The notes beneath the pieces are model-generated. The model was given only the letters and a program-made list of their open reading frames with translations. It was not told where the DNA came from and did no database searches. 64,000 nucleotides of DNA, taken from NCBI RefSeq assembly GCF_004010195.1, contig NC_057756.1, positions 8,786,921 through 8,850,920 on the forward strand. The letters run 5' to 3'. This DNA is from Chiloscyllium plagiosum. Lineage: Eukaryota. Positions 378 to 51,680 of the stretch are shown here, piece by piece. Numbering within the stretch: the stretch's first letter is position 1; every line of letters starts with the position of its first letter. Position numbers and translations under genes: made by a program.

Positions 378-467
378 ATGTTTCTCAGCAGCTTCTCGGT
401 CTCCTGTCAGTGTCTGACCCTGATCCTGATCGCAGTCCCGGTCCCGGTCCCGGGAAAGGAGCTGCAG
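378..467 (+). CDS. Candidate exon 1 of B7/butyrophilin-like IgV receptor (MFLSSFSVSCQCLTLILIAVPVPVPGKELQ)
   Basis: ATG at 378, hydrophobic stretch, donor CAG|gtactt at 467/468 (phase 0). This matches the phase-0 reading of the 1506 exon. Confidence 0.5.
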
Positions 468-1505: not shown

Positions 1506-1570
1506 GGACACAGCTCCCAGAAACTACTCCCCCCCGCTGCTGCTGCTAAATGTTGTTGCTGCTGTTTCAG
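1506..1570 (+). CDS. Candidate exon 2 (signal-peptide exon) of the IgV receptor
   Basis: Acceptor gttttcttgttgcag| and donor TTTCAG|gtcagt. One frame reads PLLLLNVVAAVS(G) and ends in phase 1, matching the IgV1 exon. A C7 run lies inside the exon (see findings). Confidence 0.6.
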
Positions 1571-6622: not shown

Positions 6623-6850
6623 ACGCAGTACTGTTCAGCTGCTTAGTGCTGACAAATATCCAGCACAAGTTCCTTTTAGTTGAAGACCCTCAGTATCTGA
6701 GCTTCAACCTTCCCATAGAAATGAAAGCAGTGAGTTACTAATCAGAGCTTCTTGTAAATCCAGCATTGCAGTGTAACCATGTGAAGCTTGGGATGTAATG
6801 TACCAGCAGGGAGGTTCTATCTGTGGATAAATACTTTCAATGTTTTCCAG

Positions 6851-7195
6851 GTGACTCACCTGTCCCAGTTTCTGGGTTCCTTGGGGAGCAGGTTGTGCTG
6901 CCCTGTACCTACAAAGGGAATGTCCCAGTATCTGATTTACTGGTTATCTGGGGAACACCCAAATATGAATTTTTACACAAGTTTGTGAATGGGAGTGATG
7001 ATTTGAGAGAACAAGACCCACGGTTCAGAAACAGAACAAACCTGTTCAAAGATCAACTGGAACAAGGCAACTGGTCAGTTCTGATCTCTGACCTCAGGGA
7101 GACAGACCAGGATGAGTATCAATGTCAGATTTACAGCAAGATGGGAGATCGCTTTCGATGGCTGGAAGTTGTTTCAGTCCATCTCTCTGTCACAG
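6851..7195 (+). CDS. IgV exon 1 of B7/butyrophilin-like receptor
   Basis: 345 nt, phase 1-1, ttttccag| ... ACAG|gtgagt. Contains the V-set motifs VLPC, W and DQDEYQC, plus the B7/BTN-type signature QDPRFRNRTNLF..QL..GNWS..I. Confidence 0.93.
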
Positions 7196-7335
7196 GTGAG
7201 TGTTTTTGTTTGGTTATTTTGCTCTGCGTTTGATTTCCTGAGATAATAGTATAGTGGTCATGTTGGGAAACTAGACTTTGAACATTTCTGCAGTTTGTTT
7301 CACACACCGTACTAAACACATGATGTTTCCTTTAG

Positions 7336-7374
7336 AGCGAGCTCCTACACCTGGACCGAACACACCTGTACCAG
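7336..7374 (+). CDS. 39-nt Pro/Thr-rich linker exon (ERAPTPGPNTPVP)
   Basis: tttcctttag| ... CCAG|gtaaat, phase 1-1, open in the frame of both V exons. Confidence 0.8.
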
Positions 7375-8051
7375 GTAAATCTGTTTCTAAACTACTGCAT
7401 GTGTTTTCAGCTCTTACATTGGATCATGCTGGATAGACAGGGAGGAACGTTGGAAGGTTTGAAATGCTGTGTGATATTTTACCAAAGAATGATTCAGTGA
7501 GAGTTAGTGGTATGAGCCACTGTTCCCTGGAAGTGGTCCTTAATCTTCCTGGGATTGTTATTTCTGTTTCCGAGACACCCCTTCCTGTCCCTCAGATACA
7601 GAATACTAGGGATTCCTACTTCCTACTATCATTAGTCTTTCTGGAATTCTGTGTGGAGACTCTCGGTACAATGTGAATGGAACCCTCCTCTTGGGAAACT
7701 GATGGGATTGGGAATGATGCTGGTTGAAGTCAGTGAAGCCATATTGACTGGTCTTCCACCCAGTCCCTGGGAGAAAGGGAATTTTCTCATCTTGTTGAGA
7801 TTTACTTGCTTCCATGCGTCTCTGTGCAGTTTTCAGTTTAAAGGAAGATTAGAGTCTACACACTGTGGAGGGAATCTTTGTTAGAAATAATGTGATCTTG
7901 AGCCTTAATCTTCCCATAGAAATGAAAGCAGTGAGTTACTGATCAGAGCTTCTTCTAAATCCAGCATCGTAGTGTAACCATGTGAAGCTTGGGATGTAAT
8001 GTGCCAGCAGGCAGGTTCTCTCTGTGGATAAATCCTTTCAATCTTTTCCAG

Positions 8052-8396
8052 GTGACTCACCTGTCCCAGTTTCTGGGTTCCTTGGGGAGCAGGTTGTGCT
8101 GCCCTGTACCTACGAAGGGAATGTCCCAGTCTCTGATTTATGGGTAATCTGGAGGACACTCAAGATGGAAATTGTACACGGGTTTGTCGAGGGGATCGAT
8201 GATTTGAGAGAACAAGACCCACATTTCAGAAACAGAACAAACCTGTTCAAAGATCAACTGGAACAAGGCAACTGGTCAGTTCTGATCTCCGACCTCAGGG
8301 AGACTGACCAGGATGAATACCAGTGTCAGATTTACAGCAAGATGGAGGAGCACTTTCATCGTGATGGAGTTGTTTCAGTCCATCTCTCTGTGAGAG
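8052..8396 (+). CDS. IgV exon 2 (tandem duplicate of IgV exon 1)
   Basis: 345 nt, phase 1-1, cttttccag| ... AGAG|gtgaga. 96/115 residues are identical to V1. Confidence 0.93.
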
Positions 8397-9065
8397 GTGA
8401 GATATTTCTGTTTCAGGTATTCTGTTAAGTCTCTGATTTTACAGAGACAATAATCCAGTGGTGAGTTATGTTGACATGTGACTCCAGTCCCACATTAACC
8501 TGGGGAAGGTTTAATTGCCCTCTTTAATTGTCTGAGCACATCAATCAGTTTGTACCAAACCCCGAGACAGGAAAATCCACAATAAAACTGAATGGGTCAC
8601 TGGCTGTGAGCCAGGCATCGAATCAGGACACAGCAATGACACAGCCAGCCCAGCTGCCCCTGTAAAGTCCCCGTCACTAACATCTGGGGACTGGGGTCCA
8701 ACTTGGGAGACTGTGGGACATAGTCACACTGACAGAAATAACACAACATCCCAGACTCCCCTATCACCATCCCTGGGTATGTCCTGTCCCACTGGAAGGA
8801 CAGGCCCACCAGAGGCGAGGGCACAGAGAGATACAGTCTGGAGGGGGTGACCCTCGATGAAGGCAGTGTGGTATAATATTGACCCAGTTGTAAAGCACAT
8901 TGAAATTCATCTCAAGCACTTTCCTCTCAATGCTGTAGGCTTCTCCACAGGAAAATAACTGTAAAATAAAACAATTTCATCAGTGGTTTAATTGAAGGGT
9001 AACTGATGCTGGTCAGTGTACAGTTCTCAATATTGGAAAGCATGTATCAATCCCATCGTGGGGCA

Positions 9066-10790: not shown

Positions 10791-10932
10791 GAAACAAAAT
10801 CCACACAAGATGGCAGCATCGAATGGTGTCCCTTTGAGAGAGGTGACCTGTTCAGGTGAAGCAGAGAGCTTGTGCCACACGTACCTGAGCATCAGGATGG
10901 AGCTGCCGGGGAACGGGACTGTCAAGCACTGA
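10791..10932 (+). CDS. Terminal cytoplasmic exon (RKQNPHKMAASNGVPLREVTCSGEAESLCHTYLSIRMELPGNGTVKH*)
   Basis: Strong acceptor tttctctctccatag|, phase 2 matching the TM donor. Homologous to the paralog exon at 22612-22714. Confidence 0.75.
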
Positions 10933-22000: not shown

Positions 22001-22611
22001 GAGGGTGTGAAATGATGGAAAGCTGCTGACATTAGACAGGCTGAATTTTTTCAAAGGTGATATCTAATTCTTTTCAATCTGCACTTAAGCTTGACATCGC
22101 TAGAGCTGGTGAATTGATTCAGTACAGAGTGTGGACTGGGCTGAGCAGGACAGAGCAGGCATGGCTAACAGTTTTCAAACTTCAGGTTTCTGAATGCAGG
22201 CTAGAGTTCACAACTCCCATCAACTATCAATCATCGAAGGATTGGCCCAACTCGACAAACAATCCATGGGGTTGAAGATAATGACCCCATCCTGTGGAGA
22301 TGGCCAGGTGGTGAGTGCAGGGAGCAGGATTAAACATTGCTGGAATCATCGGAATCAAGGAATCAGATCTCACCAGCCATTTTTAACGGCCCCCAGAGTG
22401 GGTCTGAGTTTGTGAAAACCGAGGCCTAAATTTACGGGATTGTGGTTGGTGGCCAGGACTTGGACATCGGGATGTCATTGCTGATCTCAGCCTCTCCATG
22501 GATAATCACTGAGCAGCTAATGGAAAGAGCTGATTGTTCCCTCAGTGACTCGGTCACAGGGTTAAAGTAACTCATGGGGGTTTCATCGACAGCTCCAGCC
22601 CCCAGAGGGGC

Positions 22612-22714
22612 TCATTCTCCAGCCGCTCCATCCTGATGATTGGGTGATGTTGGACAAAATGCTTCCCTTTCACTTGGATGAGACACATCTCTCAAAGGGA
22701 TTTGTTTAGATGGT
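22612..22714 (-). pseudogene. Terminal (cytoplasmic-homologous) exon of the inverted paralog
   Basis: Acceptor ttgatttttcttctag|. The frame reads PSKQIPLRDVSHPSEREAFCPTSPNHQDGAAGE*, homologous to 10791-10932. Joined to the TM exon it starts with TG|A, a stop. Confidence 0.65.
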
Positions 22715-22965
22715 CTAGAAGAAAAATCAACAAGAATTCATGTTGCATTTGAACACGTGTGTAAAGGAGCTGTTCAGGAGCACAGACACATTAAATGACC
22801 GTCGACGTCCTGGGGACCAATGGGTGACAGGAGCTGCACGGTGATGGAGCACAGGGTGTAGAGGAGAGGACGCTTATAGGGGAGGCAATGGGCAAGAGCT
22901 GGGCACTCCACAGGAGCTGTGCTGACTGACAGAGGGAGGGCCAGAGGAGAGAGTGAAGAGCCCTG

Positions 22966-24875
22966 CAATTAGGGACCGTGGGAGGTTGCTGAGTAAGGTA
23001 AGGGCCCATGGTTTTCAAGGTGAGCTACTGGCATGGATTGAGGATCGGCTGTCTGACAGAAGGCAGAGAGTTGGGATAAAAGGTTCTCTTTCAGAATGGC
23101 AGCTCATGACAAGTGGTGTCTCGCAGGGTTCAGTACTGGAGCCGCAGCTGTTCACTTTAGAAATTACTGATCTGGATGAACTGGGGCATTCTGGCGAAGT
23201 TCGCCAATGATATGAAGTTAGGTGGACAGGCAGGTAGTTCTGAGGAGGTGGGAGGCTGCAGACAGATTTAGACAGTTTAAGAGAATGGTCCAAGAAATGG
23301 CTGATTCGATTTGATTCGATTCAATTCCTTACAGTATGGAAACAGGCCCTTCTGCCCAATAAGTCCACACCGACCCTCCAAACAGTAACCCACCTAGACC
23401 CATTCCCCTACTCTATATTTACTCCTCACTAATGCACCTAACACTATTGGCAATTGAGCATGGCCAATTCACCTGGCCTGCACATCTTTAGATTGTGGAA
23501 GGAAACCTACGCAGACACGTGGGAGAATGTGCAAACTTCACACAGACAGTCGCCCAAGGCAGGAATCAAACCCCCAAGGCAGGTCCCTGGTGCTGTAAGG
23601 CAGCAGTGCTAACCACTGAGCCACCGAACTGCCCTTAAGTTAAGGGCAGTTCAGAGGCTAGGAATCCCGCAACAACTAACTCACCTCCTGACACCCCAAA
23701 GTCAGCCACCACAAGGCACAAATCAGGATTGCGATGGAAAAGTCCCCACTTGTCTAGATGGGTGCAGTTCCAAAAAGACAAGAAACTTCACACCATCCAC
23801 GACAAAATAACCTATTTGATTGGCACTACATCCACAAATATTTACTCTCTCTGCAGACGCTCAGTAGCAGCAGTGTGAACCATCTTTAATAAGCCCATAA
23901 TACATAGGAGCAGAAGTAGACCGTTCAGCCCATTGAGTCTGCTCCACCATTCAATGACAGCATGGCTGGTCTGAGAATCCTCAGCTCCACCTTACTGCCT
24001 TTTCCTTATAACCCTCAATTCCCTGACTGATTAAGATTCTGCCCATCTCAGCCAAGAATCTACTGAAATTCAACGTGAGCAAATGCAAGGTCTAGCACTT
24101 TGGAAAAAAAAAATGCAGGCATGGACTATTTTCTAAACGGTGAGAAAATTCATCAAGCCAAAGTACAAAGGGATCTGGGAGTGCTAGTCAAGGATTCTCT
24201 AAAGGTTGACTTGCAGGTTGAGTCCGTGGTTAAGAAAGCAAATGTAATGTTGTCATTTATCTCAAGAGGGTTATAATGTAAAAGCAGCGATGTGCTACTG
24301 AGACTTTATAAAGCTCTGGTTAGGCCCCATTTAGAATACTGTGTCCAGTTTTGGGCTCCACACCTCAGGAAGGAAATATTGGCACTGGAGCGTGTCCAGC
24401 AGAGATTCACACGGATGATTCCTGGAATGGTAGGCCTAACATACGATGAACGGCTGAGGATCATGGGATTGTATTCATTAGAGTTTAGAAGGTTGAGGGG
24501 AGATCTAATAGAAACTTACAAGATAATGCATGGCTTAGAAAGGGTGGATGCTGGAAATTTGTTTCTGTCAGGCTGGAATACTAGGACCCGTGGGCACAGC
24601 CTTAGAATTAGAGGGAGTCAATTTAAAACAGAAATGTGGAGACATTTCTTCAGCCAGAGAGTGGTGGCCTGTGGAATTCATTGCACAGTGGAGGCTGGGA
24701 TGTTAAGTGTCTTCAAGGCAGAGATTGATAATTTTTTAATCTCACAAGGAATTAAGGGACACAGGGAGAGTGCGGGTAAGTGGCGTCGAAATGCTCATCA
24801 GCCGTGACTGAATGGCGGAGTGGACTCGATGGGCCGAATGGCCTTACCTCCACTCCTATTTCTGATGGTCTTAAT
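22966..24875 (+). mobile_element. CR1 LINE RT/3' region inserted in the paralog intron, itself interrupted by a SINE and other repeats
   Basis: ORF 22953-23210 has SGVSQGSVLEPQLF. ORF 24292-24807 has LYKALVRPHLEYCVQFW. The flanks rejoin seamlessly against the + gene intron at ~10505. Confidence 0.9.
23324..23634 (-). mobile_element. HE1-type SINE nested in CR1
   Basis: Reverse GGTGGCTCAGTGGTTAGCACTGCTG head and CR1-like tail. Confidence 0.85.
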
Positions 24876-25140
24876 AGTTCCTCCTCCCACAGTGAAGGGT
24901 GCATGTGGGGAAAGGTGGGGAGCACAGGGATGTGGATATTGAGGAAAACAAGGAAATCCGAGAGGGTATTCCCAGTGACTGATGCATCTGATGCCCAGGA
25001 TAAAGGGGAGGTTTGCAAATCCTGGAGGCAACAGAGCAACAACAACTTGCATTTATTTAGCAGCTGTAACACAGAATATAGGAGAGGTTAAACACAATCT
25101 GACCCTGAGTGACACACAGGAATTTAGGCAATGAGGTATA

Positions 25141-25675
25141 CAGGCAGCCCCCGCTTTTCGAATGTTCGCTTTATGCCAATTCGCTTTTACCAAAGACCTA
25201 CATTAGGACCTGTTTTCGCTAACTGAAAGAGGATTTGCGCTTTTACAAAAAAGCACACACAACCTCCTTCCCCGAACGTGTTAATAGATGACCCTCTTCC
25301 TCTATCTCCTACACTCCAGTCTCCCACCTACCCCAACCTCGGACGACTCAGTCTAACATATCATCATCATCACCTCCACCTCTCAGCCTTCCAGTGTGCT
25401 CACTGCGTTTCCTAATTCTGGTGAATGAAACTAATGTACATACATCATTTCCTCTTTATGTAGGCTGTATATTTATTGTATCAGTGCTGCTTTTTCTATA
25501 CATTGGTGTTGTTTTAGGTTTTGTGTGTTATTTGGTATGATTTGGTTGGGTATTTTTTGGGTGTGGAAACTGAAAAGGATTTCCCATATAAATTACTGCT
25601 TCTTTGCTTGACGCCATTTCAGCTTACGAAAGGTTTCATAGGAACACTCTGCTTTCAGACAGCGAGGGATACCTG
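25141..25675. mobile_element. Tigger/pogo-like non-autonomous DNA transposon (MITE)
   Basis: Imperfect TIRs CAGGCAGCCCCCGCTTTTCGAA / CAGGTATCCCTCGCTGTCTGAA (reverse complement), flanked by TA on both sides. Confidence 0.7.
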
Positions 25676-26326
25676 TACCTTAAGATCCAGCTTCAATGAG
25701 CACAGGGTGGGTGGGGCTGAGGGTCCATTGACCCCAGTGTTCAGCAACTTTGTGACATTCCCATAAACCCAAACACCATCCAGTCTTTGCAAAAGGGACC
25801 AAGACCGTCTCGTTCCTCTGACCCACTTGCAATAAAGCCTACCATCCCATTTACCTCCCTCATATCCGACCTGTAATTTGGAGATTTATCTACAAATTCC
25901 TCTGAATGACATTCACTGGCCTTTCTCCTTGTAAAAATATTCTTTTCTATTCACGCTTCACTTTTTTTTAAAAAACAGAAACGACTGCAGTTATTATCCA
26001 AATATTTATCCAGCATTTCCCTGTTTGCAGCCTCTGTATCCCCTTCACAGCTTACTTTCCCACTGAGCTTTATATCAGCAGCAAACTGGGACAATCCCAC
26101 TCTATCCACCCATCTCAGTCACTGATATAGATTGTGAGTCACTGAGGTCCCAGCACTGATCCTCGCAGCACCAGTTACATCCTGACAACTGACAATGACC
26201 CATTTGTTCCTGCTCTGTTCCTGTCCATTAACCAATCCACAATCCATGCTATATTACCCCCCAATCCCCTGGGCCCTCATCTTTCAAAGGGTTACCATGG
26301 AAATAGTGGAACATTCCAGAACTCAC

Positions 26327-26435
26327 CATCTTTGTCGCTTTAGGACAAAAAAACCTGCAATTTCAACAACAACAGCAATCCCAGCAGCAATCCCGACTCC
26401 CAATCCAACTCCTGTTCCAGTGAAGAGTCCAGAAC
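26327..26435 (-). pseudogene. TM exon of the inverted paralog (GSGLFTGTGVGLGVGIAAGIAVVVEIAGFFVLKRQR)
   Basis: Intact acceptor ctgtctccag| and donor TG|gtgagt, 109 nt, phase 1 to 2. Flanking introns align to 8985-9960. No upstream V exon was found in the window. Confidence 0.8.
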
Positions 26436-26619
26436 CTGGAGACAGAGTGAAGCCATTAACAGACTGGGACACACAAACTAAACTAACAGCAGAGACCTTC
26501 AGCACCTCGTGTTTCAGAACCAGCCCCAGGACAAACAGATCCCTGGTTAATTCTAGTCGTGGAGGGATGTGGGAGGTTAGATCCCAATAATGTCATACAC
26601 CAGACCACCCCACAGCTCC

Positions 26620-26654
<35 letters not shown>

Positions 26655-27049
26655 CCCACAATGTGATAGATACATGCTTTCCAATAGCGAGAACTGGACA
26701 CTGACCAGCAGCAGTTTCCCTTCAGTTAAACACAACAGCAAGAGTGTGTAACTTACCAATTTGGAAAACCATGCAATTGGTGGAATATTGGTTGACACTG
26801 ACTTCAACCAGCATCACTCCCAATCCCATCAGTTTCCCAACAGGAGAGTCCAGTTCACATTGTACCGAGACTCTCCACACAGAATTCCAGAAACACTGAT
26901 TCAAGTGGGAAGCAGGAATCCTCAGAGTTCTGTATCTGAGGGACAGGAAGGGGATTCTGAGAAACTGAAATAACAATTCCAGGGAGTTTAAGGACCAGTT
27001 CTAGGAAATGGTGACCCACATCACTCACTCTCACAGGGTCATTCTTTGC

Positions 27050-27450
27050 TGAAGTAACTGGACTATAGCTGTAGGTAAACAGATATAAACCAATAGCATT
27101 TAGCACAATCACAATTATAAAATCCTCCTTTACCCACACGGACAAAGCAAATGGGGAAAATAGCTTACTAGCGGAAGTGGAGAAAATTGGAAAGTCAGTC
27201 TAAGTATCATTCCTTCCTGATCCTGATTTGAGATCATCTTTCTTTGGCTGGCCAAGCCATCAGTGTTTAATTTCCAGAGAAAAAGAGTCTCTGGATCAAT
27301 TTAAAAAGTCACCACTCACAGCAACAGCTGCAGGAAAGTAAGTGGAAAGGTAAGTTTTATGTAAATACACGTTTAAACTGAATGTTTACTGCAGAGAACA
27401 GACAGCTTCTGCAGAGAACAGCAGCACAATCTTCTGTCTCCTTTGTTCCG
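27050..27450 (-). mobile_element. LTR-like repeat fragment, same family as 29880-30800 but in opposite orientation
   Basis: CACTCACAGCAACAGCTGCAGGAAAGT and TGCAGAGAAC...CTTCTGCAG align to the reverse complement of 29920-30020. Confidence 0.55.
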
Positions 27451-34580: not shown

Positions 34581-35407
34581 TGGAATGTTGTAGGTTAGGT
34601 GGGCTTTTGATTGGTTTCACAGGTCGGCGCAACATCGAGGGCCGAAGGGCCTGTACTGCGCTGTAATGTTCTATGTTCTATGTCCCAGAAATCTAAAACC
34701 CTTCGTCAAGCACCAACCTGAATAAATCTGTAACTATCCTGTTGCCTCTCTGACAATGGAGTGCACCCTGAGTTACAGGCACAAGGGAGGGTCAGCCTGG
34801 ATGAACAGCTCCAACAGCAAGGACTCAAAGCTACAAGGTTCAGTCCCAGAACACCAGCAAGGACGACCCTGGTTATTGCGCTACTAAACAATGGTCCAGC
34901 CACTGTTACAAATCTTTCCAAGGTATGAATTCTGGGACATTTCCACTTTTATCCACAGGCTCCTCCGGCCCAAGGGAGCTCAGATCTTGAGATCCCACCT
35001 GATCTTACAACGAACATGTTCAGAGTGATCCTGAACAAACAGGTCCCTGATGAAACACTTTACCTGAGTCATCACCACAAACACGTTGCTGACTCAGAGC
35101 CAGGACAGTGACTGCCCCAAGAACCAACATGTCTGGAAGAGAAACACTGAGACAGTGACATTCACCAGCTCGGCACATGCCAATTAACTTCACAGCCAAT
35201 GGAATCGATTTTCTGAAAAGTGATCAGTGTAGTAGTACAGCAACACTGGCAGAAAATATCTGCGCACTGAGGTCCTTGCAATCATGTCTGATAATGTACC
35301 TTACAGACATTAATTTACCCAGTTCCTTGTGGTCACAAAACATTTTACATTCACCCGGTCGGGAGATGGGGCTCTGTTTGCAGTTACATCAGTATGACTA
35401 CAACTCT

Positions 35408-36603
35408 GACAGAGCGGTATTCCCTCAGCACTGACCCTCCGACAGTGTGGCGTTCCCTCAGCACTAACCCTCTGACAGTGCGGCGCTCACCTCAGCACTG
35501 ACCCTCTGACGGTGCGGCACTCCCTCAGTACTGACCCTCCGACAGTGCGGCACTCCATCAGCACTGACCCTCCAACAGTGCGGCGCTCCCTCAGCACTAA
35601 CCCTCCGACAGTGTGGCGCTCACCTCAGCACTGACCCTCTGACAGTGCAGCACTCCCTCAGTACTGACCCTCCAACAGTGCGGCACTCCTTCAGCACTGA
35701 CCCTCCTACAGTGCGGCACTCCCTCAGCACTAACCCTCCGACAGTTCGGCGCTCACCTCAGCACTGACCCTCTGACAGTGCGGCACACCCTCAGTACTGA
35801 CCCTCCAACAGTGCGGCACTCCCTCAGTACTGACCCTCCAACAGTGCGGCACTCCCTCAGCACTGACCCTCCGAGAGTGCGGTGCTCCCTCAGCACTAAC
35901 CCTCTGACAGTGTGGCACACCCTCAGTACTGACCCGCCAACAGTGCGGCACTCCCTCAGCACTGACCCTCTGACAGTGCGGCGCTCACCTCAGCACTGAC
36001 CCTCCGACAGTGCGGTGCTCCCTCAGCACTAACCGTCTGACAGTGTGGCGTTCCCTCAGCACTAACCCTCTGACAGTGCGGCGCTCACCTCAGCACTGAC
36101 CCTCTGACTGTGCGGCACTCCCTCAGTACTGACCCTCCAACAGTGCGGCACTCCCTCAGCACTGACCCTCTGACAGTGCAGCGCTCACCTCAGCACTGAC
36201 CCTCCGACAGTGCGGCGCTCACCTCAGCACTAACCCTCCGACAGTGCGGCGCTCCCTCAGCATTAATCCTCCGACAGTGCGGCGTTCACCTCAGCATTGA
36301 CCCTCTGACAGTGCAGCACTCCCTCGGTATTGACCCTCCGACAGTGCAGTACTCCCTCAGCATTGACCCTCTGACAGTGCGCACTCCCTCAGTACTGATC
36401 CCCTCCGACAGTGCAGCGCTCACCTCAGCACTAACCCTCCGACAGTGCGGCGCTCCCTCAGCACTGACCCTCCTACAGTGCAGCGCTCACCTCAGCACTA
36501 ACCCTCCGACAGTGCAGCGCTCACCTCAGCACTAACCCTCCGACAGTGCGGCGCTCACCTCAGCACTGACCCTCCGACAGTGCGGCACTGCCTCAGTGCT
36601 GCC
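35408..36603 (+). repeat. 32-33-bp minisatellite (~36 copies)
   Basis: Unit CTCCCTCAGCACTGACCCTCCGACAGTGCGGCA/G with a few variant types (CTCACCTCAG, AGTACT, CTAACC) and no unique spacers. Confidence 0.95.
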
Positions 36604-38634
36604 CTCTGCTGTTTTATGTCTGTACATCCATCTTTGCTTTCTCCACTGTATATTTTGTCCAGCTTCCTGGAGGACTCCATTCACAGAAGTCAATGTAGTT
36701 TGAACCCCAGGATGTTTGAGCTGTGATGTGGAGATCTTTCTTACTGGAAATTCTGGAAAAAGCCTGGAGTCATGCGGAGAAGCAGCTATGAAAGATTGCT
36801 CAGGCACCAGGTGTATTGCGTTCCATTCCAGTCACCACCCCCTTTTGGAACGATGTTTCCACTTTGGAGAGGGGTTCAGAGCAGATTTACCAGAATGAAC
36901 CAAGGAATGAGGGAATTCCCTCCGTGTGAAGAGACTAGGAAAAGCTGGACTTGTTCTCTTTGGAGCCGAGTGGAGATTGAATTGGGAAGTTCAAAATCCC
37001 TGTAGGCGGGGTTTTGATTGAGTTAATGAAGGAGACACCATCTCTAGGAGCAGGAGGGTCAATCACCAGAGGGACATGGGTTGGAGAGAATTGGGAAAAG
37101 ACCCAGAGGAGTTGGGGGTGGAGTGGGAAGAGGGGGAGAATTTGCTTTTTTGACCTGGCGAGTTGGTGTTGTAATCTGGGATGTGCTGCCTGGAAGGGAG
37201 CGGATTCAACAGGATCTTTCAAACGTTGGGGAGGTGGGAGGGGGTAGAATTGGAAAAACACCCGAATGGGAAAGATTTGCAGGGCAGTGTGGGAAAGAGT
37301 TGGGCCAGTGGTCTCCTCTTGCGTTGTATTTTTGTGTGACGCGTGCACAAACGTTGAGCTAAAAGCATGTCCACACCGGTTCGAAATGAGTTTTTTTAAT
37401 GCTTGCTTATTGCGGCTGGATAATACCAGGAAATATATGTTGAAGACAAATTGACAGTGTTGACACTGAATCAATTGCATTTTTAAGTTATAAGATGGTT
37501 TTGCCCTCAGGCTGGTTAACATTTGAAATCACTCACAGGATCAGAGAATGTTGATTAAAACATTGAGAATGTTTCCAACATGTTGAGGCTATTCAGCCCA
37601 TCATGTCCATGACATATGGAAAGCCACAATTGAACCTGCCTCGAACACACTCTGAGGCAGCATATTCCAGACCCTCGTCACTTTCAGAAACAGGTTTGTT
37701 CTCACGTTGCCATTACTTCTATTGCATTCCATCTCAACTCCATATGATTATCAATCCTTGCACCAATGGGAACAATGTCTCCCTTTCTACTCTGCCCGGA
37801 CCCTTAGGACTTTCATCATTTCGATTGAATCTCTTCCCAGGACTTCCTTTCTCTGAGTAGAACCGTCCCAGCTTCTAAATGAAGTGAAATTCCCTACCTG
37901 TAACTCTCATATGTGATTTCAGGCAAAGGGTTGAGAGGGAAATCATGGGGTGATGTATTGTCACTGGACTGGTAAGCCCGAAGCTGTGGCGATGTTTAGA
38001 GGATGCAGTAATATTGCTGGATTAGTAATCCCTAACCCCAGGCTTTGGTCATGGGTTCAAATCCCACTTTGGTGAATGGTGAAATTTGAATTCAATAAAT
38101 TTCTAGAATAAAGAAAATTAGCCTAATGTTGATCTCCAATAATTGTTATTAAAAACACACCATCTTCACTAAGGCCCTTTAGGGAAGGAAATCTGCCTCC
38201 TGTATCTGGTCGGTCCTACATTTGACTACAGCGATGTGGTTGACTTGGAAATGTCTGTTCAGTTAAACCTAATCACTAGAAACTCTGAGAAAAGGAATGA
38301 AACCAGACAAACTAGCCGGCATTGACTAAGGCACTGGAAATGCCAATGGGCCACACTCCTCTGTCAATCCTGCAAGGTCCTCCTTTCTAACATTAGGGGG
38401 TTTGTGCCAAAATTGGGAGAGCTGTCCCACAGACTAGTCAAGCAACAGCCTGACATGGTCACCCCCCACGGAATCACAGACAATGTCCCAGGTACCTCCA
38501 CTCCAATGTTCCCTCAAAGCTACTCAACTGGGCAGCCCCTTGAAGGTCCCACACACATCCTTGACTTTCCCTTGCCGATGTCACTGCTATACACGGACCT
38601 CTGAGATTTAATCATCGACATTCCAGAGACTCAA

Positions 38635-50469: not shown

Positions 50470-51680
50470 CGTTGCTGTGGTTCCGTTCGCCGAGCTGGAA
50501 GTTTTTGTTGCAAACGTTTCGTCCTCTGTCTCGGTGTCATCCTCCGTGCTTGGGAGCCTCCTGTGAAGCGCTTCTGTGGTGATTCCTCCGGCATTTATAG
50601 TGGCCTGTCCCTGCCGCTTCCGGTTGTCAGTTTCAGCTGTCCGCTGTAGCAGCCGGTATATTGGGTCCAGGTCTATGTGTTTGTTGATGGAGTTTGTGGA
50701 TGAGTGCCATGCTTCTAGGAATTCCCTGGCTGTTCTTTGTTTGGCTTGCCCTATAATGGTAGTGTTGTCCCAGTCAAATTCATGTTGCTTGTCGTCTGGG
50801 TGTGTGGCTACTAGGGATAGCTGGTCGTGTCGTTTCGTGGCTCGTTGATGTTCGTGGATGCGGATCGTTAGCTGTCTTCCTGTCTGCCCTATATAGTGTT
50901 TTGTGCAGTCCTTGCATGGGATTTTGTACACTACAATAGTTTTGCTCATGCTGGGTATCGGGTCCTTCGTTTTGGTGAGTTATTGTCTGAGAGAATACAG
51001 AACGAGGACATGCCGCAACCCAAAGGACGAGCCACACTACCATACATCAAGAATATATCTGAAATGACAGCCAGACTACTGTGACCACTAGGACTTATAA
51101 CAGCACACAAACCAACAGCCACTCTCAGACAACAACTCACCAAAACGAAGGACCCGATACCCAGCATGAGCAAAACTAATGTAGTGTACAAAATCCCATG
51201 CAAGGACTGCACAAAACACTATATAGGGCAGACAGGAAGACAGCTAACGATCCGCATCCACGACCATCAACTAGCCACGATACGACACGACCAGCTATCC
51301 CTAGTAGACACACACACAGACGACAAGCAACATGAATTTGACTGGGACAACACTACCATTATAGGGCAAGCCAAACAAAGAACAGCCAGGGAATTCCTAG
51401 AAGCATGGCACTCTTCCACAAACTCCATCAACACACACATAGACCTGGACCCAATATACCGGCCACTACAGCGGACAGCTGAAACTGACAACCGGAAGCG
51501 GCAGGGACAGGCCACTATAAATGCCGGAGGAAACACCACAGAAGCGCTTCACAGGAGGCTCCCAAGCACTGAGGATGTCACCTAGACAGAGGACGAAACG
51601 TTTGCAACAAAAACATCCAGCTCGGCGAACAGAACCACAGCAACGAACACCCGAGCTACAAATCTTCTCACAAACTTTGA
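50470..51680 (+). mobile_element. Penelope-like element: GIY-YIG 3' portion with a ~520-bp inverted 5' copy
   Basis: ORFs 51166-51585(+) and 50455-50949(-) both encode VVYKIPCKDCTKHYIGQTGR. AGAGGAACCGTT is duplicated at 50462-50473 and 51681-51692. Confidence 0.93.
51565..51605 (+). ncRNA. Minimal type I hammerhead ribozyme in the Penelope pLTR
   Basis: GCA-CTGAGGA-[TGTCACCT..AGAGGAC]-GAAA-CGTT-TGC, with intact CUGANGA and GAAA boxes and a palindromic AAACGTTT stem III. Confidence 0.6.

Follow-up and report, generated by a model that had tools for sequence, protein, structure and literature searches.

Why should two neighbouring exons of one gene agree almost everywhere and disagree mainly on the surface that would be expected to touch a partner? 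The gene that raises this question lies on the forward strand of the window, by which we mean the whole 64 kb stretch of Chiloscyllium plagiosum DNA that was analysed (NC_057756.1 8,786,921-8,850,920, which is G000:C47:8786921-8850920 in the coordinates used here). Its exons run in the order leader 1, leader 2, V1, stalk, V2, transmembrane (TM), tail (Table 1). The original prediction was that V1 and V2 had been driven apart on their binding face by diversifying selection, or by patchwise conversion from other paralogues, giving two binding specificities in one receptor. We favour, with moderate confidence, an answer in which both exons are mosaics. They belong to a shark-wide, V-only, B7-like family, clustered at this locus, in which conversion likely homogenises the framework and likely moves older variable blocks around; this copy of the gene is likely dead or null.

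Table 1. Features of the gene and its neighbourhood. Positions are those of the window, except for the three paralogues at the foot, which are given by genome and contig.
Feature	Position	Strand	Basis or remark
Leader exon 1, ATG to phase-0 donor	378..467	+	tblastn with P0029/P0014 N-termini, splice donor
Leader exon 2, signal-peptide core, 65 nt	1506..1570	+	+1 frameshift in 7-C run, 1529-1535
Pre-V1 intron stretch, common to most family V exons	6700..6850	+	blastn, pairwise counts
V1 exon, B7/BTN-type IgV	6851..7195	+	Pfam V-set, PDB sequence match, AF2 model; full codons 6853-7194
V1 patch 1, codons 30-48 (C, CC', C', C'')	6940..6996	+	within tract near-identical to paralogue D
V1 patch 2, codons 98-105 (FG turn, start of G)	7144..7167	+	residue comparison with P0001, P0014, P0003
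Pro/Thr-rich stalk exon, 39 nt	7336..7374	+	sequence and homologous proteins
Pre-V2 intron stretch	7901..8051	+	differs from 6700-6850 at 12/151 bases
V2 exon, open, GT donor intact, mosaic	8052..8396	+	Pfam V-set, shifting nearest paralogue; full codons 8054-8395
V2 patch 1	8141..8197	+	5' half closest to A, 3' half closest to G_V1
V2 patch 2	8345..8368	+	closest to G_V1
TM exon, Gly-rich, span without charged residue	9278..9392	+	
Cytoplasmic exon up to stop	10791..10932	+	shorter than paralogues through 1-base and 17-base losses
Truncated paralogue: intron, TM, tail copies	22588..27056	-	self-blast, exon map
Paralogue A	G000:C47:8593125		
Paralogue D	G000:C47:8857628		
Paralogue G_V1	G000:C47:8969799		

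Two exons that differ in two patches

V1 and V2 are both open, with AG/GT ends, and are the only V exons that tblastn found in the window, none being detected in the truncated paralogue on the other strand. They differ at 42 of 342 bases and at 19 of 114 full codons, much as had been counted by hand (the earlier total of 115 took in the split codon). Nine of the 19 residue changes lie in patch 1 (V1 to V2: L30W, G34R, P36L, Y38M, F40I, L41V, K43G, N46E, S48I) and seven in patch 2 (G98E, D99E, R100H, R102H, W103R, L104D, E105G), leaving K21E, R57H and T114R outside. None of 2000 shuffles put 16 changes into its best two windows, the maximum being 14. The NGS sequon at residue 46 of V1 is missing from V2, and the framework is as near-identical as described (2/84 bases differ in codons 1-28 and 7/144 in codons 49-96). 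Also as claimed, the upstream introns are more alike than the patches, with the 12 differences in 151 bases listed in Table 1 set against 19/60 in codons 29-48 and 14/54 in codons 97-114. This intron likeness is family-wide: the 6700-6850 stretch is matched by blastn upstream of seven other V exons or remnants (84-95%), and the V1 intron is nearer those of three other copies (6/140, 6/125 and 7/125) than that of V2 (11/140). It is therefore not evidence of a private, recent V1/V2 duplication.

The predicted binding face

Both domains are Pfam V-set, and the top PDB sequence match of V1 is B7-H4 (E 3.4e-16); by sequence, the closest solved relatives are B7-H4, B7-H3, MOG and PD-L1. The AF2 model of V1 (pLDDT 94.8, from 42 alignment rows) places strand C at residues 29-34, C' at 40-45, F at 87-97 and G at 100-113. 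Its closest folds are B7-2 (Z 18.2, rmsd 1.1 over 107 aligned residues), ICOS-L (17.4) and B7-H4 (16.6), together with B7-H3. Identity to B7-H4 is 29-31%, several B7 members score similar Z values, the automatic annotation names of homologous proteins conflict, and the Atlas matches are generic V-set clusters.

The GFCC' face of B7 proteins is the site that binds receptors of the CD28 family. In the V1 model, a V domain of B7/butyrophilin type, patch 1 is predicted to run from C to C'', and patch 2 to cover the turn between F and G together with the beginning of G. According to PMC7348870, BTN2A1 and BTNL3 contact gamma-delta TCRs through a C-F-G surface. The strand model and fold matches thus bear out the C-C'-C''/F-G side as the location of the differences; they do not extend to the middle of strands F and G. 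There Q90, Q92 and Y94 (F) and V106, S108 and H110 (G) vary across the family yet are identical in V1 and V2, so that the V1/V2 differences lie on the C/C' side and at the FG tip.

Blocks with separate histories

The mosaic tests covered eight exons, the seven intact ones of the cluster and a frameshifted pseudogene, C. PHI gave p 0.0002-0.0004, the C-C'' and FG blocks rejected each other's trees in AU tests (p 0.002 and 1e-6), and codons 19-37 form a run shared by A and pseudogene C (Bonferroni p 0.009). The nearest paralogue changes from block to block. Over codons 29-48, V1 is 2/60 bases from D as against 19/60 from V2, and D is its nearest paralogue in windows from codon 13 to 48. V2 over the same codons is 10/60 bases from A, and only 1/36 over codons 28-39. 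The FG blocks (codons 97-114) of both V1 and V2 are nearest to G_V1, at 7/54 and 9/54 bases, respectively. PHI, the AU tests and these block-by-block neighbours together substantiate the half of the prediction that proposed patchwise exchange with other paralogues. For each patch, some other paralogue is nearer than the sister domain, so V1 and V2 did not come by their differences through divergence from one another in situ, and we rejected a private, recent V1-to-V2 duplication diverging fast where it stands.

Proteins from other sharks tell a similar tale. Residues 95-114 of V1 differ from domain 1 of P0001 (C. punctatum), P0014 (Hemiscyllium) and P0003 at 0/20, 1/20 and 3/20 positions, and the V2 patch 2 region is 1/20 residues from P0001 domain 2. 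The FG blocks of V1 and of domain 1 in P0001 and P0014 differ by 0-1 residues. In the C-C'' block, V1 is 1 residue from D, and the orthologues P0001 and P0014 share in domain 1 another block, 3 residues apart. The simplest reading of these sequences would be that D's C-C'' block was copied recently into V1, a cross-species polarity that rests on automatically annotated protein models, not DNA.

Silent changes follow the patches as well. Differences at fourfold sites amount to 33/82 and 32/98 in the patches and 58/529 in the framework, that is 3-4x higher in the patches (the pairs compared are not independent). Among codons for the same residue, the synonymous excess in the patches is +0.155 (permutation over codons, p 0.0004); codons whose residue is invariant in all seven exons, the strictest subset, show synonymous variation in 3/5 cases in the patches and 14/42 elsewhere (p 0.24). 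Higher synonymous divergence in the patches is what is expected if conversion homogenises the framework. Conversion limited by divergence could also produce it without selection, and the long identical runs in the core can be explained by constraint alone. PMC3966226 treats a joint rise of dS and dN in variable regions as a signature of conversion acting together with selection, with Ig V genes, RH genes and protocadherins as examples.

We picture the following mechanism. The conserved framework would serve as homology arms for conversion. Now and then a whole C-C'' block may be copied in, as from D into V1, presumably once the C. punctatum lineage had separated; more often, it would be the framework alone that is copied. 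Selection may preserve the differences between blocks because the blocks determine the binding of each copy, and of these steps this is the one we propose most cautiously.

One small observation belongs here. In the C. punctatum models P0001 (domains 1 and 2) and P0055, position 78 is Thr in place of Ile/Leu, a change absent from the rows of other species and a sign of framework conversion within C. punctatum.

How much selection?

Synonymous divergence is a stronger signal than anything the site models offer. Between V1 and V2, pN/pS is 0.278/0.375 in patch 1, 0.498/0.508 in patch 2 and 0.022/0.14 elsewhere. Region omegas over the seven paralogues are 1.05 (codons 1-28), 0.65 (29-48), 0.38 (49-96) and 1.13 (97-114). 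The third is below 1 (p 0.002), and the D-E-F core is under purifying selection; the patch values of 0.65 and 1.13 are not significantly above 1. Neither are those for sites whose side chains point outward, as deduced from strand alternation alone (1.12 and 1.73).

The codon models were fitted with our own code to the seven intact exons only. On one tree, M1a/M2a and M7/M8 give 2dL of 29.9-31.6 (p ~1e-7) and flag L30, Y38, R102 and S108, with M8 assigning an omega of 7.6 to ~6% of sites. When M2a is compared with M1a using four segment trees and rates, 2dL drops to 3.95 (p=0.14), in a version of the test that can absorb real signal. Simulations without selection but with a mosaic history reach 5.99, the 5% cut-off, in 70 of 106 cases, and their maximum is 29.36, as against 29.39 for the real exons. 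We set the naive M1a/M2a and M7/M8 p-values aside for these two reasons. The locus is a warning case: ~2/3 of the no-selection simulations with a mosaic history pass the usual dN/dS test. The real statistic stands narrowly above all 106 null simulations, so some positive selection at a few sites is plausible, if weakly supported. The prediction of diversifying selection comes through only weakly, with the one-tree M7/M8 signal in its favour, and the segment-tree p of 0.14 and a pN that does not exceed pS against it. As for the site-by-site dN/dS check proposed with it, the region omegas stay at values not significantly above 1, and the sites do lie on the C-C'-C''/F-G side.

Could the patches be nothing but exposed loops that drift freely (omega ~1), beside a purified core and with conversion homogenising whatever stays alike, so that they have no role in specificity? 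The region omegas, a pN no higher than pS, the non-significant segment-tree test and the many broken copies in the cluster all fit such drift. Against it, not one of the null simulations exceeds the real statistic, and five sites (R102, S108, P36, Y38 and Q90) retain posteriors of 0.93-0.99 with segment trees. Variable positions interleave with constant ones along F and G, the A-B/D-E side is conserved although it too is exposed, and the FG blocks are stable among orthologues. Drift of this kind we consider unlikely.

The state of this copy

As assembled, leader exon 2 measures 65 nt, as against 64, 67, 70, 73 and 73 nt, all in frame, in the cluster's other full copies that were parsed (5/5), and 76 and 70 nt, again in frame, on unplaced contigs (2/2). 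Spliced from the assembly sequence, leader 1, leader 2 and V1 meet a stop after 52 residues, and by eye we saw no alternative ATG in leader exon 1 that would rescue the frame. At 1529-1550, a run of C is followed by a CTG repeat; the in-frame copies have 5-6 C, this gene 7 and its neighbour C ~11. From the sequence, such a run could act as a slippage switch, turning the gene on and off; the frameshift could also be an assembly error. The gene's own product is not among the 55 hits of our protein search. We conclude that the copy is probably dead, or else a null allele, and that as assembled it would make no protein.

Downstream of the leader, the tail has lost 1 base and 17 bases, which jointly restore the family's final frame (compared by eye with seven other copies). 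At 10860-10932 of the window, the shift creates a Tyr-x-x-Ile and removes the EQNLL motif seen in the family.

The idea of two specificities in one receptor is therefore not sustained for the gene as assembled: its leader is frameshifted, and the splice joints listed for 8 runs include none from V2 to TM, those seen in contigs fitting paralogues. That the gene makes one receptor, whose two V domains were driven apart by positive selection for two ligands, strikes us as quite improbable. V1, stalk, V2, TM and tail do form one open frame to the stop at 10932 when spliced in silico, two-V layouts occur among homologous models (15/55), and the single-tree M8 estimate could be read as favouring it. 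Yet beside the broken leader and the missing protein, the orthologue models are themselves damaged, and no signalling motif is present. P0001 starts without a normal leader, carries Tyr in domain 1 in place of the first Cys, and continues past V2 with Asp where this gene has its donor Gly; in P0014, V2 is frameshifted.

The sequence of both V2 patches and of V1 patch 2 is real, given that run X6 yields exact contig pieces at 8130-8254 and 8308-8466, spanning both V2 patches, and run X8 an exact piece across V1 patch 2, in the FG region. That the mosaics are assembly chimeras of near-identical copies is thus hardly credible: the assembly of this repetitive cluster is gapped and the frameshift sits in a base run, but the exact pieces in X6 and X8 cross these three patches, the same block types occur in independent shark assemblies, and V1 and D retain differences, both in the introns and at those 2/60 bases. 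A joint from 7794 to 8476 in X8 and X9 had looked like a presence/absence polymorphism of V2; its loose ends map to C and to D, a gene collinear over this stretch that has no V2, so we rejected that idea.

A V-only family of sharks

Where, then, do the blocks come from? In a genome search, 49 matches were recovered; those that are close lie at 8.59-8.97 Mb of C47 and on one unplaced contig. Of the V exons, seven have remained intact, namely V1, V2, A, B, D, G_V1 and G_V2, and the remainder are frameshifted, interrupted or partial. The protein search gave 55 hits from 105 candidates, all shark-labelled and 62-89% identical, and the V domains of the Chiloscyllium plagiosum proteins P0016, P0020 and P0029 match exons of the cluster exactly. 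A further, alignment-based search, which covered proteins of 628-2000 residues, gave three distant fish hits.

Homologous proteins are laid out as leader-V-(stalk)-(V)-TM-tail. Unbroken leader-V-V-TM models with differing patches do occur elsewhere in the family (P0002, P0003, P0004, P0010 and P0013). Pfam matches V domains alone on P0016, P0002 and P0003, without an IgC after the IgV, and neither IgC nor B30.2 appears in the scanned proteins or the precomputed domains of the 55 hits. Tails are ~60 residues long. Among the 47 of these proteins with a TM, tails hold an ITIM in 0/47 and an ITAM in 0/47, GxxxG is present in 46/47, and the TM window is charged in 4/47.

The 19 sites that distinguish V1 from V2 are variable across the family. 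Their mean entropy is 2.02 bits, as against 0.83 elsewhere (p=1e-7), in 68 domains (73 extracted, 69 unique, one frameshifted row removed; near-duplicate isoforms remain). Outside Chiloscyllium and Hemiscyllium the values are 1.87 and 0.83 bits (50 domains). Annotated isoform pairs in which one V exon is omitted (P0020 and P0002; P0049 and P0010) hint at cassette splicing. D, a single-V gene, keeps at V2's place a 61-base remnant of a pre-V intron (G000:C47:8858651-8858878), which suggests that it lost a second V exon.

We found no description of the family in the literature searched, in which subscription journals are thinly covered. CD276, butyrophilin and VTCN1 are absent from the main text of PMC7677710, whose supplements may list them, and PMC12227049 deals with UrIg, a different thing from this family.

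Comparison with known systems

The B7 proteins (B7-H4/VTCN1, B7-H3/CD276, PD-L1, CD86 and ICOS-L) are the best sequence and fold matches of the family and share with it the type I membrane topology and a short tail without ITIM or ITAM. It differs from them in lacking a C domain, V or V-stalk-V leading directly onto the TM, at ~30% identity, and in forming a cluster of many copies that exchange blocks. Most B7 ligands are encoded by single, conserved genes. To butyrophilins, BTNL proteins and MOG it is related through the IgV. MOG is V-only as well, whereas the butyrophilins and BTNL proteins differ in having the IgC and B30.2 that the shark family is without. With neither, the family is not canonical B7 or butyrophilin.

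Clustered copies, pseudogenes and a variable GFCC' face are also features of CEACAM/PSG, SIRP, CD300 and teleost NITR, clusters that include paired inhibitory and activating receptors. The shark family is unlike such pairs in its ITIM and ITAM counts, both zero, and so its proteins would be surface ligands, adhesion or decoy molecules, not signalling receptors. In its evolution, the family works like known conversion-plus-selection families, and the pattern itself, associated with Ohta and Innan, is well known. According to PMC3966226, Ig V genes (CDR versus framework), RHD/RHCE and the clustered protocadherins likewise show elevated dN and dS where they vary and homogenisation in the remainder. 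The differences are that here two blocks of one 345-nt exon have separate histories, and that selection is not firm.

What might it all be for? Tentatively, and with rather more doubt than belief, we suggest a germline-diversified form of recognition in sharks, in which CDR-like blocks would be recombined between copies, broken copies would act as donors and V exons as splice cassettes, all keeping pace with a partner that changes fast, for instance a pathogen protein or a polymorphic receptor of shark lymphocytes. Sharks are among the oldest vertebrates with adaptive immunity. If true, an expanded, shark-wide V-only offshoot of B7 with block exchange on its predicted face would offer a fresh candidate there for an arms race or a code of self-recognition.

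Further observations

Several things seen in passing deserve recording. In Carcharodon, models P0008, P0009 and P0039 have a TM Arg where P0011 and P0040 have Gly, and are possible adaptor-coupled forms. Cetorhinus model P0033 is a family member fused to a PRDM7/9-like protein, a hint that a gene of that kind adjoins a family member. On G000:C37, between 17.9 and 33.6 Mb, lie ~20 more distant B7/BTN-like V matches (28-36% identity) and one leader-like match. Inside the cluster, at G000:C47:8880590-8940002, at least 12 tandem C2/I-type Ig exons belong to another family and by eye resemble Fc-receptor-like or leukocyte-receptor-complex genes. ORF fragments at G000:C47:8989108-8990740 look, again by eye, like retroelement pol. 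The window itself contains a short-period tandem array at 35404-36608 and, at 50470-51645, a 524-base inverted pair of 97% identity with mobile-element-like ORFs.
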